This document shows positions 13,649 through 49,037 of a stretch of 64,000 bases of DNA, piece after piece. Position 1 is the first letter of the stretch. Each line of letters starts with the position of its first letter. The DNA is taken from positions 4,770 through 68,769 of the forward strand of contig CAJTMA010000006.1 of NCBI GenBank assembly GCA_910577205.1. Direction: 5' to 3'. The translations under genes and the position numbers were made by a program. The notes beneath the pieces were generated by a model, which was not told where the DNA came from, did no database searches, and saw only the letters and a list, made by a program, of their open reading frames with translations. The DNA comes from an uncultured Alphaproteobacteria bacterium (lineage in GTDB: Bacteria; Pseudomonadota; Alphaproteobacteria; RF32; CAG-239).

Positions 13649-13743
13649 TCCGGCAGACTTTCATATTAGGGTTGACTATCATTATAAAATACATAATACT
13701 TCAGGAAATTGAAATAAACCAGAAAAAAACGAGAAGAACCACC

Positions 13744-14541
13744 ATGAATTTTATTGATTTGGGTTTAAGCAGCAAAACCGTGCAGGCTATTGACGAGTTT
13801 GGCATTACCGAGCCAACAACCGTGCAGGCTGATGTCATCCCTTCCATTTTGCAAGGCAAAGATGTCTTTACGATTGCGCCGGCAGGCTGCGGCAAAACAA
13901 CTTCTTATGTTTTTCCGTTGCTGGATGTTATTTCCGGTGCTGACGGAAAACAAAAAAATATCCTGATTATTACGCCGGATTCCGAGCAGTCGGTTGTTGT
14001 TTCTGACAGAATGGCCATCTTCAACAAATATCATGAAATTAATGAAGCGACCATCAAAGACAAGGCTGAAGATATTGATAACGAAGCCAACGTCATTATC
14101 GGTTCTCCCGAGCTTTTGGTTGAACTGGTTAACGAAGAAAAACTCGACTTAGCCAAAACCAATATTTTAGTAGTGGATGATATTAATCTCATCAAAAAGA
14201 AAAAACAGCTGAACAATCTGGAAAAAATTCTGGATTTATTGCCAGCCGATAAACAAAATATTGTCTATACCAACCGCCGCTCCAAAGAAACTCAAGGCAT
14301 TTTAGATAAGATTTTGAAAGCGCCGGAAGAAATCAAAGTTGACAAGGCAAAAGAACAGGAAGCCGAACTGACGGCTAAAAATCCTGCACAGGAAACTGCC
14401 GCTCCCAAACAAAACAATCACCGTTGCAAACAGCCGGTTAAAGACAGCGAAGCTTTGGAACTGGTGAAAAAATATGACTCGTTCAACGGCAAGACGCCAT
14501 CTTTCCTGATAAATAAAGGCATCATAGTTAATATCGATTAA
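13744..14541 (+). CDS. DEAD-box-like protein with only the N-terminal RecA domain and degenerate motifs
   Basis: The Q motif (PTTVQ) and Walker A (APAGCGKT) are present. Motif II is VVDDIN in place of DEAD, and motif III is absent. No helicase C domain follows. The C-terminus is K/E-rich. I set the start at MNFIDLG (13744). Confidence 0.6.
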   Translation: MNFIDLGLSSKTVQAIDEFGITEPTTVQADVIPSILQGKDVFTIAPAGCGKTTSYVFPLLDVISGADGKQKNILIITPDSEQSVVVSDRMAIFNKYHEINEATIKDKAEDIDNEANVIIGSPELLVELVNEEKLDLAKTNILVVDDINLIKKKKQLNNLEKILDLLPADKQNIVYTNRRSKETQGILDKILKAPEEIKVDKAKEQEAELTAKNPAQETAAPKQNNHRCKQPVKDSEALELVKKYDSFNGKTPSFLINKGIIVNID

Positions 14542-14577
14542 AAAAGTCCCCTTGCTTTGGCAAGGGGACTTTTATTT
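14541..14577. terminator. bidirectional intrinsic terminator
   Basis: AAAAAGTCCCCTTGC-tttg-GCAAGGGGACTTTTATTT between the convergent DEAD-like gene and XRE copy 1. Confidence 0.6.
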
Positions 14578-14821
14578 AGGAAATATCTTCGAGTTCTATC
14601 TTGATTTTGCAGTTGTAAAACCCGGCCAGATAACTGAGCATACCCCAGTGAACATAGGCCTTGCCGCTTTCCACTTGGTCAAAGTAATGCGGCGAAACAC
14701 TGACTTTCATCGCCAATTCGTCGAGCGTCATCTTTTGCGATAGCCGCCGCTCATAAAACTGCCGCCCTAAATGGGCAAAAGTTTCCTGATTATTTTTTCT
14801 GATTTGTTTTTTGGTTAACAT
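14576..14821 (-). CDS. XRE-family helix-turn-helix transcriptional regulator (module copy 1)
   Basis: The HTH region is QKMTLDELAMKVSVSPHYFDQVESG. It is near-identical to the ORF at 48743-49000, differing by V/I and S/A. I chose the start at the second ATG (MLTKKQ), which has a GGAG RBS. The track start is 14833. Confidence 0.75.
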   Translation of the reverse strand: MLTKKQIRKNNQETFAHLGRQFYERRLSQKMTLDELAMKVSVSPHYFDQVESGKAYVHWGMLSYLAGFYNCKIKIELEDIS

Positions 14822-14926
14822 TTCCAACTCCATTTTTGTTTTTTAATAAACCCCACTTAATCTCCCCTTAAATTAAGGGGAGAAAGTCATGTTGCTCAGC
14901 AACATGACCAGAGGGGTTTTATAAGT

Positions 14927-15089
14927 TAAACAAAACCTGCCTTTAGCTTCCTAAAGGCAGGGGAGTTCGAAACTGTAACAGAACAGTCCGGGTTATTCGC
15001 GCATAGCCTTATCTCCCCGGCTCCCCTCAAAAGGAGTCGTTCTTTTCTGTTAGGAGTTTCGATACTCCACAATCCGTCTCCGGACTGCG
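14927..15089 (-). ncRNA. candidate structured small RNA or cis-regulatory leader (module copy 1)
   Basis: The promoter is TTGCAA-16 nt-TACAAT (15096-15123 on the minus strand). A long-range helix pairs CAGTCCGG with CCGGACTG, and there are several internal hairpins. It ends in the GC-rich hairpin CCTGCCTTTA...TAAAGGCAGG followed by a T-run. The second copy at 48485-48648 carries stem-preserving substitutions. Confidence 0.5.
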
Positions 15090-15252
15090 AGAATGATTGT
15101 AAGGCAAAATAGTTAATTTGCAATGAAAAAAAGCCTTACCCGGCGGGGTATTGGTCTTATTTCAGTTGCCGAGATTACTTCGTCACGCGTTTCTTGTGAG
15201 GACTGTTCTGTAAAAAAATCTCCGGCTTGCGGAGATTCTTAAAAGGGTGTCC

Positions 15253-15414
15253 CTACCAAGGAATATCTGTTCCCTGAATACATTTTCGGCTATCCTGCCG
15301 GCAGGTTTCCGTACGATTTAAATCATGCATGGCATGGCGTTTTTCATTAAATTTTCCGGCTTCGACACAAGCCGTCAACAGACATACCGCAACAAAGATT
15401 AAAACTTTTTTCAT
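15253..15414 (-). CDS. small putative lipoprotein (53 aa), absent from the ORF track
   Basis: ATG at 15414 with an AAGGAAA RBS. It encodes MKKVLIFVAVCLLTAC|VEAG..., which is a signal peptide with a lipobox Cys. A terminator-like hairpin lies downstream (AATCTCCGgcttgCGGAGATT, ~15211-15240). Confidence 0.35.
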   Translation of the reverse strand: MKKVLIFVAVCLLTACVEAGKFNEKRHAMHDLNRTETCRQDSRKCIQGTDIPW

Positions 15415-25273: not shown

Positions 25274-26407
25274 TTATGAAGCCAGATGCTCAACTCCGAC
25301 CGGCGTTTTGTCATTGCCGAGCTGAATATCTTCAATCCGGCCGATGCGGCGGGAAATCTTGCCGGAAGAAACCTTTATTTCGCCGATGTCGCGTGCCGCC
25401 ATATCAAAATGTTTTCCAAGATTTTCAATACGGTCATCCAGACGAGTAATATCCTCAACCAAGCTGCCGACTTCTTTTTGAATAACACCGGCCATTTCAC
25501 GCATCCGCGCGTCTTTCAAAACGGCACGAACCGTATTGAGCGTTGCCATCAGCGTGGTGGGCGAAACAATCCAGACCTTAGAGCGGTAGGAAGTTTCCAC
25601 CACGTCGGTAAAGTTAGAGTGAAGTTCGGCGTAGATGGCTTCCGATGGTAAAAACATAAGTGCAGATTCTGCCGTTTCACCGGCGATAATATATTTTTCC
25701 GAAATATCTTTAATATGCTTTAACACAGACGCCTTGAAAAAGCGTTCAGCTTCAAGCTTCTCGCGGTCGGTCTGCGCATTGCGTAAGGCCTGGTAACTCT
25801 CCAACGGAAATTTGGAATCAATGACAATCATTCCCGGAGGATTCGGCAGGTTCAACACACAGTCTGCACGCTTCTGATTCCCCAAAACCACCTGAAAGGC
25901 ATAAGCAGAGGGCGGCAAAGCCGAGGTTACCAAATCGTTGAGCTGGATTTCGCCGAACGCGCCGCGCGCCTGTTTGTTAGACAAGACTTCCTGCAAAGAA
26001 ACAACCTGCTCGGACAAACTGGAAATCTTTTGCTGGGCAACATCAATCTTGGCCAGACGTTCACGCAAGTCGTGCAGGGTTTCGGTTGTTTTGGCCGTTG
26101 ACTGCTGCAATCCTTCGCCGACGCTTTTAGTCACAGCCAACAGCTTTTCATCCATAATTTTCAAGACAGAAAGCTTTTGCTCGTTTATCGCATCGGCTAT
26201 CCGGCTTTGCGAGTTCTGGTTATTTTCAGACAGCTGGGATAACCGGCCGGCAAGCTCCGCCTGTCCGCGGAACAATGTATCTGCCAAAGAATTAAGCTGG
26301 CGGCTGTTGTTCCGGCGCAGCAGGATAATCATATTTCCCAGCAGCAACACGGAAACGATGATGCCAAACAGCATTTCCAAAGGCAGATAGTAAGTTCCGA
26401 TTGTCAT
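25274..26407 (-). CDS. rmuC: DNA recombination protein RmuC
   Basis: An N-terminal TM segment is followed by a long coiled coil and the RmuC C-terminal nuclease-like domain. Confidence 0.85.
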   Translation of the reverse strand: MTIGTYYLPLEMLFGIIVSVLLLGNMIILLRRNNSRQLNSLADTLFRGQAELAGRLSQLSENNQNSQSRIADAINEQKLSVLKIMDEKLLAVTKSVGEGLQQSTAKTTETLHDLRERLAKIDVAQQKISSLSEQVVSLQEVLSNKQARGAFGEIQLNDLVTSALPPSAYAFQVVLGNQKRADCVLNLPNPPGMIVIDSKFPLESYQALRNAQTDREKLEAERFFKASVLKHIKDISEKYIIAGETAESALMFLPSEAIYAELHSNFTDVVETSYRSKVWIVSPTTLMATLNTVRAVLKDARMREMAGVIQKEVGSLVEDITRLDDRIENLGKHFDMAARDIGEIKVSSGKISRRIGRIEDIQLGNDKTPVGVEHLAS

Positions 26408-35838: not shown

Positions 35839-35913
35839 GCCGCTGTAGCTCAGTGGTAGAGCACGTCATTGGTAATGACGGGGTCGCAAGTCCGATTCTT
35901 GCCAGCGGCACCA
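35839..35913 (+). tRNA. tRNA-Thr (anticodon GGU), CCA encoded
   Basis: Manual fold. The acceptor stem GCCGCTG pairs with CAGCGGC. The D stem is GCTC/GAGC. The anticodon stem CGTCA/TGACG carries the loop TTGGTAA, giving anticodon GGT. The T stem is GCAAG/CTTGC. The T loop TCCGATT is slightly unusual. Confidence 0.8.
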
Positions 35914-35949: not shown

Positions 35950-36100
35950 TTATCGTGGGACGGGCGGAATTGCGAAGCAAGTCTGACGAAGCCGGTTGGC
36001 GGCCATCAATCGGCGAAGGACGAGGAGCTAAAGCGACGAGGTCTTGAGCGGCAGCGAAAGATGCGCTCTACCGAAAGCCCCCGCACCTTCAAAGCCAGCG
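35950..36100. repeat. solitary degenerate unit of the 80-bp repeat family (left boundary of the AT-rich islet)
   Basis: Positions 35974-36002 (GAAGCAAGTCTGACGAAGCCGGTTGGCGG) are identical to 39968-39996 in the last unit of the tandem array. The downstream CCGCACCTTCAA motif is also shared with 40052-40063. Confidence 0.6.
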
Positions 36101-39252: not shown

Positions 39253-39423
39253 AATGTTTTATTTTAATTGTTAATATTTTTTAAAACAAAAAACATTTTT
39301 GAAACCAAGATTGATTACTCAATAATTGACTACAATAATGCTTTTTAATGAGTAAAGAATATCACATCCCCCTATTTTTGCAAGCACAAAAATTGACAAA
39401 AAAGGAGAGATAAGGAGTTTTGC

Positions 39424-40026
39424 GGCGGAGGGAGAGGCGCTTTATGGCGAGGGGTGAGCCGAGTTGCAAAGCAAGTTTGGCAAGCCGGTTGGCGGCGGTC
39501 ATCGGCGAAGCGAGAGGCGTTTTGAGGCGGAGGTTGAGCCGAGTTGCAAAGCAAGTTTGGCAAGCCTGCCGGTGGCGGTCATCGGCGGAGGGAGAGGCGC
39601 TTTGAGGCGGAGGTTGAGCCGCGTTGCGAAGCAAGTCCGACAAGCTGGTTGGCGGCAGTCATCGGCGGAGGGAGAGGCGTTTTATGGCGTGGGGTGAGCC
39701 GCGTTGCGAAGCTAGTCCGGCAAGCCGGTTGGCGGAGGTCATCGGTAGAGGATGTGCCGCAAAGCGCCACAGGTTGGGCTGAGTTGCGAAGCTAGTCCGG
39801 CAAGCCGGTTGGCGGAGGTCATCGGTAGAGGATGTGCCGCAAAGCGCCACAGGTTGAGCTGAGTTGCGAAGCAAGTCCGGCAAGCCGGTTGGCGGCGGTC
39901 ATCGGCGGAGGATGAGGAGCTTTGTGACGTGGGTTGAGCCGTGTTGTGAAGCAAGTCTGACGAAGCCGGTTGGCGGAGGTCATCGGCGGAGGATGAGGCG
40001 CTTTGTGGTGTGAGTTGAGCCATTAA
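39424..40026. repeat. tandem array of about 7.5 copies of an 80-bp repeat, not a CRISPR array
   Basis: Full units start at 39456, 39536, 39616, 39696, 39776, 39856 and 39936. A representative unit is GAGCCGAGTTGCAAAGCAAGTTTGGCAAGCCGGTTGGCGGCGGTCATCGGCGGAGGGAGAGGCGCTTTGAGGCGGAGGTT. Copies are about 85-97% identical and there are no unique spacers. Each unit contains the small palindromes TTGCaaaGCAA and GCCGgttggCGGC. Confidence 0.85.
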
Positions 40027-40032
40027 CAAAAG

Positions 40033-40063
40033 GTGCGGACGCTATCGCTATCCGCACCTTCAA
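40033..40063 (-). terminator. hairpin downstream of the autotransporter stop, a weak terminator
   Basis: AAGGTGCGGA-cgctatcgcta-TCCGCACCTT has a 10-bp stem. On the minus strand the hairpin is followed only by the short T-containing tract TTGTT. Confidence 0.35.
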
Positions 40064-48416: not shown

Positions 48417-48450
48417 AAAAGCCCCTTGCCCAAGCAAGGGGCTTTTTTTC
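48417..48450 (+). terminator. murA intrinsic terminator
   Basis: AAAAGCCCCTTGC-ccaa-GCAAGGGGC followed by T7. Confidence 0.7.
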
Positions 48451-48478
48451 ATTGCAAATTAACTTTTTTCCCTTACAA
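48451..48478 (+). promoter_or_regulatory. near-consensus sigma70 promoter of the structured RNA (module copy 2)
   Basis: TTGCAA (48451-48456), a 16-nt spacer, then TACAAT (48473-48478). The same arrangement is found in copy 1. Confidence 0.6.
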
Positions 48479-48484
48479 TCATTC

Positions 48485-48648
48485 TCGCAGTCCGGAGACG
48501 GGTTGTGGGGTATGCAAACTCCTACAAGAAAAGAACGACTCCTTTTGAGGGGAGCCGGGGATATAAGGCTATGCGCGAATAACCCGGACTGTTCTTGTAC
48601 AGTTTGCAACTCCCCTGCCTTTAGACTTCTAAAGGCAGGTTTTGTTTT
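48485..48648 (+). ncRNA. candidate structured small RNA or cis-regulatory leader (module copy 2)
   Basis: It begins about 7 nt after the -10 element. The helix CAGTCCGG (~48486) pairs with CCGGACTG (~48586). Hairpins include GGGGTatgcaaACTCC and ACTGTtcttgtACAGT. The terminator is CCTGCCTTTAgacttcTAAAGGCAGG followed by TTTTGTTTT (48614-48648). The ORF-like reading 48452-48703 is not conserved at the protein level between the two copies. Confidence 0.5.
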
Positions 48649-48667
48649 AACTTATAAAACCCCTCTG

Positions 48668-48714
48668 GTCATGTTGCTAAGCAACATGACTTTCTCCCCT
48701 TAATTTAAGGGGAG
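48668..48714 (+). promoter_or_regulatory. two perfect palindromes between the RNA terminator and the XRE gene; candidate operators or mRNA hairpins
   Basis: GTCATGTTGC-taag-GCAACATGAC (48668-48690) and CTCCCCTTA-att-TAAGGGGAG (48694-48714). Both are conserved in copy 1 at 14886-14908 and 14862-14882, with only the loops differing. Confidence 0.5.
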
Positions 48715-48754
48715 ATTAAGTGGGGTTTATCTAAAAACAAAAATGGAGTTGGAA

Positions 48755-49000
48755 ATGTTAACCAAAAAACAAATCAGAAAAAATAATCAGGAAACTTTTG
48801 CCCATTTAGGGCGGCAGTTTTATGAGCGGCGGTTATCACAAAAGATGACGCTTGACGAATTGGCAATGAAAGTCAGTGTTTCGCCGCATTATTTCGATCA
48901 AGTAGAAAGCGGCAAGGCATATATCCACTGGGGAATGCTCAGTTATCTGGCTGGGTTTTACAACTGCAAAATCAAAATAGAACTGGAGGATATTGCTTAA
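48755..49000 (+). CDS. XRE-family helix-turn-helix transcriptional regulator (module copy 2)
   Basis: 81 aa from the second ATG, which has a GGAG RBS. It is near-identical to copy 1, and the HTH is MTLDELAMKVSVSPHYFDQVESG. Confidence 0.75.
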   Translation: MLTKKQIRKNNQETFAHLGRQFYERRLSQKMTLDELAMKVSVSPHYFDQVESGKAYIHWGMLSYLAGFYNCKIKIELEDIA

Positions 49001-49002
49001 AT

Positions 49003-49037
49003 AAAAAGCCCCTTGCCAAAAGCAAGGGGCTTTTTTT
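49003..49037. terminator. bidirectional intrinsic terminator
   Basis: AAAAAGCCCCTTGC-caaaa-GCAAGGGGC followed by T7. It lies between the XRE gene and the convergent ORF at 49036-49506. Confidence 0.65.

Follow-up and report, generated by a model that had tools for sequence, protein, structure and literature searches.

What does a ~600-bp unit encode that occurs twice, in opposite orientations, within one stretch of an alphaproteobacterial genome: a small RNA, a leader that controls the gene behind it, a small protein, or no product at all? The unit lies in 64,000 nucleotides of DNA (‘the window’, to which all positions below refer) from an uncultured alphaproteobacterium of the CAG-239 lineage, assembly GCA_910577205.1, contig CAJTMA010000006.1. 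An earlier reading of the letters alone, hereafter the original prediction, had proposed a structured RNA next to a small regulator of the XRE type. We find that each copy comprises, in order, a promoter-like site, a 161-nt RNA, a terminator, a structured leader and a gene for an 81-amino-acid (aa) XRE-type helix–turn–helix (HTH) protein. The RNA is a real structured gene and represents a new family, not previously catalogued. The module is probably an operon in which the free RNA is the main product and its terminator holds down expression of the regulator.

Self-comparison of the window bore out the inverted duplication. The two copies, at 14540–15135 (minus strand) and 48440–49036 (plus strand), lie ~33 kb apart and align in two arms, 14540–14935 with 48641–49036 (396 nt, 92% identity) and 14913–15135 with 48440–48662 (223 nt, 89% identity). 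Aligned directly, they have a mean column identity of 93%, and the likeness ends at the module borders. Each carries the hexamers TTGCAA and TACAAT, separated by 16 nt (15096–15123, minus strand, in copy 1; 48452–48479, plus strand, in copy 2). These had been called a near-consensus promoter; the site is present in both copies, and homologous RNAs are preceded by the same hexamers at the same spacing, but ‘near-consensus’ is generous for a score of 9/12 in a consensus scan. Transcription of copy 1 would start ~7 nt past the −10 hexamer, at ~15088. From there the RNA of copy 1 extends to 14928 (minus strand), and that of copy 2 occupies 48487–48647 (plus strand); both are 161 nt long, close to the ~165 nt proposed, and both fold well beyond shuffled sequence (−71.8 kcal/mol, z = −6.1, for copy 1; −67 kcal/mol, z = −4.7, for copy 2). 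In the two copies alike the terminator scan found at the 3′ end what an intrinsic terminator requires, a GC-rich hairpin (11 bp, six of them GC pairs) followed directly by a T-run (UUUUGUUU / TTTTGTTT), and the strong terminator expected there is thus present. The hairpin spans 14961–14936, with its U-tract at 14935–14928, in copy 1, and 48614–48639 in copy 2.

Selection at the level of the RNA is already visible from the two window copies alone. Their RNAs differ at 15 positions, none of which breaks a base pair. Eight of the differences form four double compensatory pairs (UCGAAACU/AGUUUCGA in one copy for UGCAAACU/AGUUUGCA in the other, and UAACAGAA/UUCUGUUA for UACAAGAA/UUCUUGUA), and two turn an A-U into a G-U pair. 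The terminator loop accounts for four more, and the last falls on an unpaired position that is variable. The original prediction had seen the right type of stem change, A-U to G-U, although it counted one instead of two. It had assigned the remaining differences to hairpin loops, which is correct for ggaagc/gacttc; atcgaa/atgcaa and tctgtt/tcttgt are instead strands of the helices P2b and P2c described below, and hold the four compensatory pairs.

The same pattern extends across the family. A covariance model, CM R1, was built from 14 diverse members; it was seeded with members of equal length, since MAFFT alone misaligned the second variable helix. In the window the model recovered both copies, at 179 and 177 bits (178.8 bits, E = 5e-53, and 176.5 bits before rounding), and nothing else real; across loci it found 124 copies in 70 loci. 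The locus searches were pattern-based, and all locus and copy counts given here are lower bounds. The RNA opens with an 8-bp 5′-terminal hairpin, P1 (15088–15069 in copy 1), capped by a G-A-R-R loop (GAGA in copy 1). Next comes a long helix made up of P2a (GGAGU/ACUCC, invariant in sequence), P2b and P2c, which closes a three-way junction with the hairpin P3 (CUCCU/GGGAG, also invariant in sequence) and the arm P4, whose loop contains a small covarying hairpin, P5. Among 94 distinct sequences, 94.8% of the cells are standard pairs, compared with 77% in column shuffles and 34–47% when the partners are slid; 37 of the 52 pairs have changed on both sides, and values as high as these arose in none of 500 shuffles. 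P1 is 98% paired, with six of its eight pairs covarying, and 10 of the 11 terminator pairs covary. This strong covariation, at the level of established riboswitches and ribozymes, supports the original prediction that selection acts on the structure of the RNA. Conservation of sequence is concentrated elsewhere: 19 of 57 unpaired columns, as against 7 of 104 paired ones, are at least 97% conserved, and they include the invariant unpaired blocks AUAAG, CGAAUAA and ACUG. The RNA core is, in this respect, aptamer-like, with covarying stems arranged around invariant unpaired nucleotides. A variant form occurs in eight loci (L113, L046, L007, L059, L091, L125, L008 and L094; for example L113:5463–5760), in which the 3′ arm GUGAACUCCC is replaced. 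Its insert of ~110 nt contains a hairpin of its own, AAAAACAACCGGAGCAACGGTTGTTTTT, after which the terminator resumes; the variant lacks the ACUCC partner of P2a and scores only ~66–98 bits.

One part of the fold first proposed does not survive. The strands of a long-range helix between CAGTCCGG and CCGGACTG (CAGUCCGG/CCGGACUG in the RNA) are complementary in the window, but the family alignment does not support the helix. Pairing there amounts to 63.9%, hardly more than the 63.1% of shuffles, and of the eight column pairs three (4–144, 5–143 and 7–141) are non-standard in 57–74 of 90 distinct sequences; its 5′ strand forms the local hairpin P1 instead. Nor is the RNA a coding sequence in disguise. 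An ORF-like frame (open reading frame; 14926–15123, 65 aa) overlaps it in the window, and short frames such as ‘(M/V)LIKRKLLPTGG...’ recur in the spacers of the tandem arrays described below, so that a small protein could be imagined as the true product. Among 78 distinct members scored, four are free of stops in one frame, 14 in another and none in the third, and most carry stops in every frame. With no frame kept open throughout the family, the ORF-like frame can be dismissed as a gene, which the original prediction had already thought unlikely to encode a real protein; the substitutions are compensatory rather than synonymous, no Pfam domain matches, and translation of the frame in the window would need to begin at a TTG within the −35 hexamer. 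A small protein is scarcely credible as the product, and we regard it as essentially excluded.

The RNA matches no family in Rfam 15. At gathering thresholds, Rfam 15 matched only an unrelated tRNA-Thr in the whole window; in E-value mode it gave only sub-threshold, mostly terminator-like, matches in the interval 14400–15300. Eight divergent loci yielded RNase P RNA and a tRNA and nothing more. This agrees with the suspicion that the RNA belongs to no known family. A literature search found no earlier description of it, and its core sequence was absent from the 200 supplementary files searched, out of 408, of the microbiome RNA catalogue of Fremin & Bhatt 2021. Current annotation passes over the module: the partner protein is often labelled ‘hypothetical’, and the ~300-nt gaps that hold the RNA are left empty.

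A pattern made from the conserved core of the RNA alone retrieved at least 120 metagenome loci, almost all from the human gut, and matched no viral contig. RNA and promoter are conserved upstream of all five homologues in genome collections. The window has two copies, as does the metagenome-assembled genome (MAG) CAYTQF01, and one NCBI MAG has at least five paralogues. The protein family is narrow, with 14 clusters among 5.8 billion proteins in a first search and ~100 when the family profile was used; its named members all come from uncultured gut alphaproteobacterial MAGs, such as Ca. Scatocola faecipullorum and ‘Azospirillum sp. 51_20’. Searches of plasmids with the RNA and the protein (blastn and tblastn) gave no match; with neither viral contigs nor plasmids among the matches, we rejected phage or plasmid origin. 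What emerges is a well-supported class of structured RNA, present at no fewer than those 120 loci, in human-gut Alphaproteobacteria that are uncultured and poorly understood.

Within this fold, two helix segments are hypervariable. One, ‘var1’, comprises four base pairs of P2b; it has at least 10 alleles, and its strands match perfectly in 110 of 127 copies. The other, P2c (‘var2’), has ~20 alleles and forms ~8 bp in nearly all copies. At one orthologous locus, RNAs that are otherwise identical carry either AACAG/CUGUU or AGUAG/CUACU, and all four combinations of var1 with var2 occur. Every copy parsed in the arrays has a distinct combination, except in L006, where the halves are mismatched as is typical of chimeras. 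Such halves, drawn from different known alleles and unpaired, are found in 17 of the 127 copies (L006, L034, L019, L042 and others). They may be assembly chimeras, from short reads, between paralogues or strains, or true recombinants with breakpoints in the invariant core. Since the paired strands flank an invariant core, one gene-conversion tract, or one chimera, would exchange both strands of a helix together, and one or other of these events is the simplest explanation of the allele shuffling. An artefact of assembly in a public record is seen at L095:7–194, a metagenome contig that ends in Nextera adapter sequence (CTGTCTCTTATACACATCT...) right after the 3′ arm of the RNA.

Reshuffled alleles and mismatched halves are also what might be expected of an element that acts as DNA: a MITE-like (miniature inverted-repeat transposable element) unit, an integration site, or the borders of an invertible 33-kb segment, with the apparent RNA structure reflecting DNA palindromes. 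The two inverted copies 33 kb apart and the multiple copies in other genomes would fit such an element, as would the surroundings of copy 2, which is bracketed by a direct repeat of near-identical terminator hairpins, one after murA (48417–48446) and one after the HTH gene (49005–49036). Yet G-U pairs are tolerated on one strand only, a strand-specific logic that belongs to RNA; promoter and terminator are conserved and correctly oriented; and palindromic DNA does not account for the 5′ hairpin, the three-way junction or the asymmetric invariant loops. The modules have no associated transposase or integrase, their synteny is stable and viral matches are absent. A DNA-level element is therefore very improbable, to the point of being essentially excluded. 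The bracketing hairpins, of sequence AAAGCCCCTTGCC(C/A)AAGCAAGGGGCTTTTTTT, could mark the route by which copy 2 was inserted or duplicated.

The RNA does not travel alone. Of the 111 copies that have enough downstream sequence, 64 showed an XRE gene 80–201 nt past the RNA core in a tblastn search with a single query; the copies so missed are members of arrays, or are followed by a diverged small HTH gene of the same type (26 loci inspected; 37 of 37 leader types). Conversely, all 17 loci found through the protein have the RNA immediately upstream (110–171 bits), even where the HTH protein is only 25–30% identical and has no Pfam hit. The link between RNA and XRE gene thus held in every protein-anchored locus and in every inspected RNA copy or array with enough downstream sequence. 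Because the RNA is retained upstream of the most diverged HTH members, its core must evolve far more slowly than the protein, and this disparity suggests that the RNA has a conserved molecular partner. Some loci carry tandem arrays of up to five units, spaced ~255–260 nt apart, with a single HTH gene at the end; each unit of the class-B arrays has its own promoter-like site (TTGCCA-17-TAATAT) and its own terminator. The neighbours of the modules are housekeeping genes (murA, gltX, secDF, sucCD, tkt, an rpoH-like gene and RNase P RNA), with no mobile or defence genes among them, and the order murA–RNA–HTH is the same in the window, L002 and L126. In class-B loci, gltX often lies downstream of the HTH gene, and one contig of a gut alphaproteobacterium encodes RNase P RNA (L098:219–628, 270 bits) some kilobases upstream of an array with four copies of the RNA.

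The HTH gene occupies 14576–14821 (minus strand, stop codon included) in copy 1 and 48755–49000 (plus strand) in copy 2, and the two proteins are 98% identical. Each gene is followed by an intrinsic terminator, at 14538–14573 (minus strand; AAAAGTCCCCTTGCCAAAGCAAGGGGACTTTTTT) and at 49005–49036 (plus strand), the latter being the near-twin of the murA terminator; at the former, Rfam in E-value mode gave nothing but generic terminator-like matches. Gene and terminator were both anticipated; the length had been left at 81–85 aa. All 14 of the closest homologue clusters (P0001–P0014) align from the methionine of MLTKKQ, and the call four residues earlier is made only for the window copies and P0001. 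Judged from this alignment, M5 is probably the true start, giving 81 aa, and the 85-aa ORF from 14833 is probably not used. The Pfam match to HTH_31 (E = 1.3e-5, 25.8 bits) falls under the gathering score of 27. The AlphaFold model (pLDDT 87) predicts a long, basic N-terminal helix, the HTH, a fourth helix and then a conserved strand-like motif at the C-terminus. The top Foldseek matches are all of XRE type (C.BclI, C.AhdI, HipB, ClgR, pSK41 Cop and 434 Cro), with probability 1.00 and E-values of only ~1e-2, and a profile search of the PDB returned XRE regulators at E = 0.004–0.03; EDF1 is among the fold and profile matches. By fold and by profile, then, this is a Cro/C1-type HTH protein. The family has the architecture ...E.G...W..Y..L..FY..K.KIEL, including a C-terminal motif of its own, FYxxK(I/L)KIE(L/F). 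NCBIfam and PADLOC gave nothing specific for the protein, only weak generic HTH matches, and identity as a defence-system or toxin–antitoxin (TA) component was rejected because PADLOC, NCBIfam, Pfam and the fold search all matched nothing beyond a generic HTH.

Might the protein’s own partner be the RNA? The two could form a ribonucleoprotein pair, in which the RNA serves as decoy, sponge or scaffold (in the manner of CsrB and CsrA), or as the RNA component of a type III-like TA pair, with the terminator setting the ratio between them. The gene layout is that of type III TA loci such as ToxIN; linkage is obligate in both directions, and in arrays the RNA copies outnumber the single protein gene. 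The protein family has its own C-terminal motif and a long basic N-terminal helix, and proteins of the XRE fold can bind RNA: EDF1/MBF1, a ribosome-associated example, is among the fold and sequence matches. Opposed to this are the ordinary Cro/C1 fold, with no likeness to ToxN-type endoribonucleases; the location among housekeeping genes instead of defence or mobile islands, with no viral contig matched; and the contrast between a near-invariant RNA core and a protein that changes ~70% of its residues, the opposite of a co-evolving interface. We consider such a partnership doubtful.

Between the terminator and the HTH gene lies a leader (14832–14927, minus strand, in copy 1; 48648–48754, plus strand, in copy 2), followed in copy 1 by the Shine–Dalgarno (SD) sequence GGAGTT (14826–14831, minus strand), which is present in all 37 leader types. 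A consensus scan from the terminator to the HTH start found no promoter-like site in the leader of either window copy. In copy 1 the terminator U-tract (14935–14928) pairs with the A-tract AAAAAACAAAAA (14844–14833), and a helix between U-tract (UUUUGUUUU) and A-tract (AAAACAAAA) is predicted in the folds of all 37 leader types, with the A-tract always 1–3 nt before the invariant SD. The loop of this helix varies from ~4 to ~130 nt and consists of self-contained hairpins; the shortest leaders measure ~30–45 nt from the start of the U-tract to the ATG. In the window, the loop holds a lineage-specific insert closed by a stem (AAACCCC, 14919–14913, with GGGGTTT, 14854–14848, minus strand) and containing the two palindromes to which the original prediction had drawn attention: GTCATGTTGC-TGA-GCAACATGAC (14908–14886) and CTCCCCTTAA-TT-TAAGGGGAG (14882–14862), both on the minus strand. 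Both are present as described, and copy 2 has the same two-palindrome insert, U-tract/A-tract helix and SD. Their weight was overestimated: other lineages fill this loop with other hairpin inserts, and the palindromes are not a conserved part of the module; they are missing from L001, L003, L004 and L005, and as operators or essential parts we rejected them for the family. That the U-tract:A-tract pairing is kept across so variable a structured loop favours a role at the level of RNA and disfavours a DNA operator. The SD itself is unusual: GGAG precedes only six of the 50 long ORFs of the window, and in none of these is it followed by TT. In the RNA it is the perfect complement of the 3′ strand of P2a, AACUCC, and in the minimum-free-energy fold of the L001 read-through transcript the two are paired. 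Sequestration of the SD as a second layer of control is plausible from these predicted folds.

We favour, as the probable reading of the whole, an operon of promoter, RNA, terminator and HTH gene. A sigma-70 promoter would drive the 161-nt RNA; most transcripts would stop at the intrinsic terminator and yield an abundant small RNA (sRNA), while a minority would read through and carry the mRNA of an 81-aa, presumably DNA-binding, regulator. The terminator would act as an attenuator, because the HTH gene has no promoter-like site of its own and could be expressed only from read-through; attenuation would keep the regulator scarce and allow it to be made only when the RNA gene is transcribed. In the read-through RNA the U-tract may pair with the A-tract ahead of the SD, and the SD may also pair with AACUCC of P2a, which could add a translational layer. 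The near-invariant AUAAG, CGAAUAA and ACUG would contact some conserved component of the cell, be it a protein or a small molecule. The structure and conservation of the RNA, its obligate linkage to the HTH gene, the tandem arrays and the lack of a separate promoter-like site are observations; efficiency of termination, expression by read-through, binding of DNA by the protein and activity of the RNA in trans are what we infer from them.

Several points weigh against this reading. The abundance of the RNA, its 3′ end and the extent of read-through all belong to the inferred part. The SD is at least partly accessible in most predicted read-through folds; the SD/AACUCC and U-tract/A-tract pairings lie beyond the reach of covariation, because their sequences are invariant; and U-rich and A-rich tracts are complementary almost by default. 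An operator for the HTH protein was not found near the promoter, where a conserved palindrome was sought by inspection of the alignment rather than formally. The precedent of the Bartonella Brt RNAs, taken up below, is one of architecture only, as the RNAs are not homologous. Finally, the extreme conservation of junction and loops is aptamer-like, and would suit a purely cis-acting riboswitch equally well.

Such a riboswitch would be a three-way-junction aptamer for a metabolite or ion that tunes termination or access to the SD, with the free RNA as a by-product. Conserved unpaired nucleotides in junction and loops, together with covarying stems, are a typical riboswitch signature; the core stays near-invariant while the protein diverges to ~25% identity, as if the RNA bound something universal. 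The RNA always lies directly upstream of the same type of gene, its terminator could serve as expression platform, and the SD/AACUCC pairing offers an alternative structure; a cis-attenuator role was also proposed by the Brt authors for their own system. An anti-terminator for such a switch was looked for by inspection of the alignment, as distinct from a formal search, and none was found; the variable terminator stems covary only internally and are not tracked by the invariant core. The only alternative pairings seen involve the GGAG/CUCC repeats and the SD. The arrays argue further against it, for they place up to five complete units, with promoter-like sites and terminators of their own, before one HTH gene; units further upstream have no means of controlling it in cis and so need a role of their own. 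A purely cis-acting riboswitch is possible, though we think it unlikely. Returning to the operon with a free RNA, the original prediction had hesitated between a free sRNA beside its regulator and a terminator-containing leader; both fit the data and, by analogy with Brt/Trp, where both have been shown experimentally, both are probably true.

We may go one step further, in a tentative and rather speculative spirit. The junction core may be a new ligand- or protein-binding domain that works both in trans, as an abundant multicopy RNA, and in cis, to gate a dedicated family of XRE regulators, and the hypervariable helices may be identity tags that keep paralogues distinct, whether functionally or physically. 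If so, the core might be a riboswitch-like sensor of a metabolite relevant to the gut, or a partner of the core cellular machinery.

Two other features of the window deserve mention. Convergent with module copy 1 is an ORF (13672–14541, plus strand) of 289 aa, in which only an N-terminal DEAD-box domain is recognized (Pfam DEAD, E = 1.9e-20); the helicase C-terminal domain is missing, and the protein may be a truncated or atypical member of the DEAD-box family. At 39423–40021 (plus strand) lies an intergenic array of 7.5 tandem copies of a G-rich 80-nt unit (82% matches), with TTGACA...GGAGAGATAAGGAGTTTTG before it and a hairpin behind it at ~40031–40060. It contains no long ORF, its 80-nt period is not a multiple of three, and its fold does not stand out from shuffled sequence (z = −0.5). 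A related single unit at 35954–36002 adjoins the tRNA-Thr gene (35839–35913).

How does the module compare with systems already known? Like riboswitches that terminate transcription, the RNA combines a multi-stem junction, invariant unpaired nucleotides and covarying stems with a terminator upstream of a gene, and, like tandem riboswitches, it can occur as several units in series. It differs in having a promoter-like site for each unit, and in that the gene downstream encodes a transcription factor rather than a metabolic or transport protein. Type III TA systems of the ToxIN kind consist of a promoter, a structured or repeated RNA, an intrinsic terminator and a protein gene, with the terminator setting the ratio of RNA to protein. 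The window module has the same order of parts. Its protein is a Cro/C1-type HTH and not a ToxN endoribonuclease, its units are of ~160 nt with their own promoters and not 36-nt processed repeats, and its context is not that of defence or mobile DNA; PADLOC, NCBIfam, Pfam and the fold search found no ToxN/AbiQ-like endoribonuclease downstream of the RNA. Multicopy sibling sRNAs are also found near regulators: AbcR1 and AbcR2 beside a LysR-type regulator in the Rhizobiales, the Qrr RNAs and the RsmX arrays. These resemble the window family in their tandem paralogous sRNA genes, which have their own promoters and terminators and are linked to a transcription factor gene. Their RNAs, however, have conserved single-stranded seeds and hairpins of a simple kind, and their regulators are transcribed from separate promoters; the window RNA has a complex junction fold, and its regulator is probably co-transcribed downstream.

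The closest counterpart is the Brt/Trp system of Bartonella. There, 9–34 copies per genome of a highly expressed RNA of 194–203 nt, abundant on Northern blots and in RNA-seq, lie 10–18 nt upstream of a promoter-less and barely transcribed XRE gene, trp (PMC5387305; PMC8070961). Deletion of the Brt1 3′ stem-loop de-represses trp1, and Trp1 and Trp3 bind badA promoter DNA; the authors proposed a dual role for the RNA, as trans-acting sRNA and as cis attenuator, and called the system genus-specific (PMC5387305; PMC8070961). Both systems belong to Alphaproteobacteria, are multicopy, and place an RNA gene of ~160–200 nt directly before a small promoter-less XRE gene, with a 3′ stem-loop just ahead of the regulator’s start and with RNA and regulator duplicated together. 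By this analogy the window module, too, would be expected to make its RNA in abundance and to express its regulator poorly.

The likeness does not extend to descent. Genuine Brt loci were compared, from B. henselae, B. tribocorum, B. krasnovii and plasmid pBGR3. With filters off, CM R1 scored at most 9.9 bits on nine Bartonella loci (L142–L150) and 8.1 bits on pBGR3, and blastn and tblastn searches of plasmids including pBGR3, with the RNA and the protein, gave no match. Brt has a different secondary structure, with neither the hairpin-plus-U-tract terminator nor the U-tract/A-tract helix; Trp is longer (108–152 aa) and has only a generic HTH in common with the window protein (27% identity over 64 aa). 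The closing helix GGAGU/AACUCC occurs in both RNAs, a coincidence, since that helix covaries in Brt. On the combined evidence of model scores, BLAST and fold, homology to Brt was rejected. The settings differ as well: Brt loci occupy a plastic, horizontally acquired region and window-type modules lie among housekeeping genes, while tandem arrays of RNA alone before a single HTH gene, a feature of the window family, have not been reported for Brt. On pBGR3 (B. grahamii, L131) there is also a match to sRNA-Xcc1 (RF02221) at 25880–25967 (minus strand), ~0.5 kb upstream of Brt-Trp, at 49.5 bits against a gathering score of 53.

With the same layout and no homology, the window element is an analogue of Brt/Trp and not a member of its family, and the precedent lowers the novelty of the architecture but not that of the RNA family. 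An operon of structured RNA, terminator and promoter-less XRE regulator, thought to be specific to Bartonella, thus has an independent counterpart, built on an unrelated RNA, in another alphaproteobacterial lineage, which points to a more general regulatory design.

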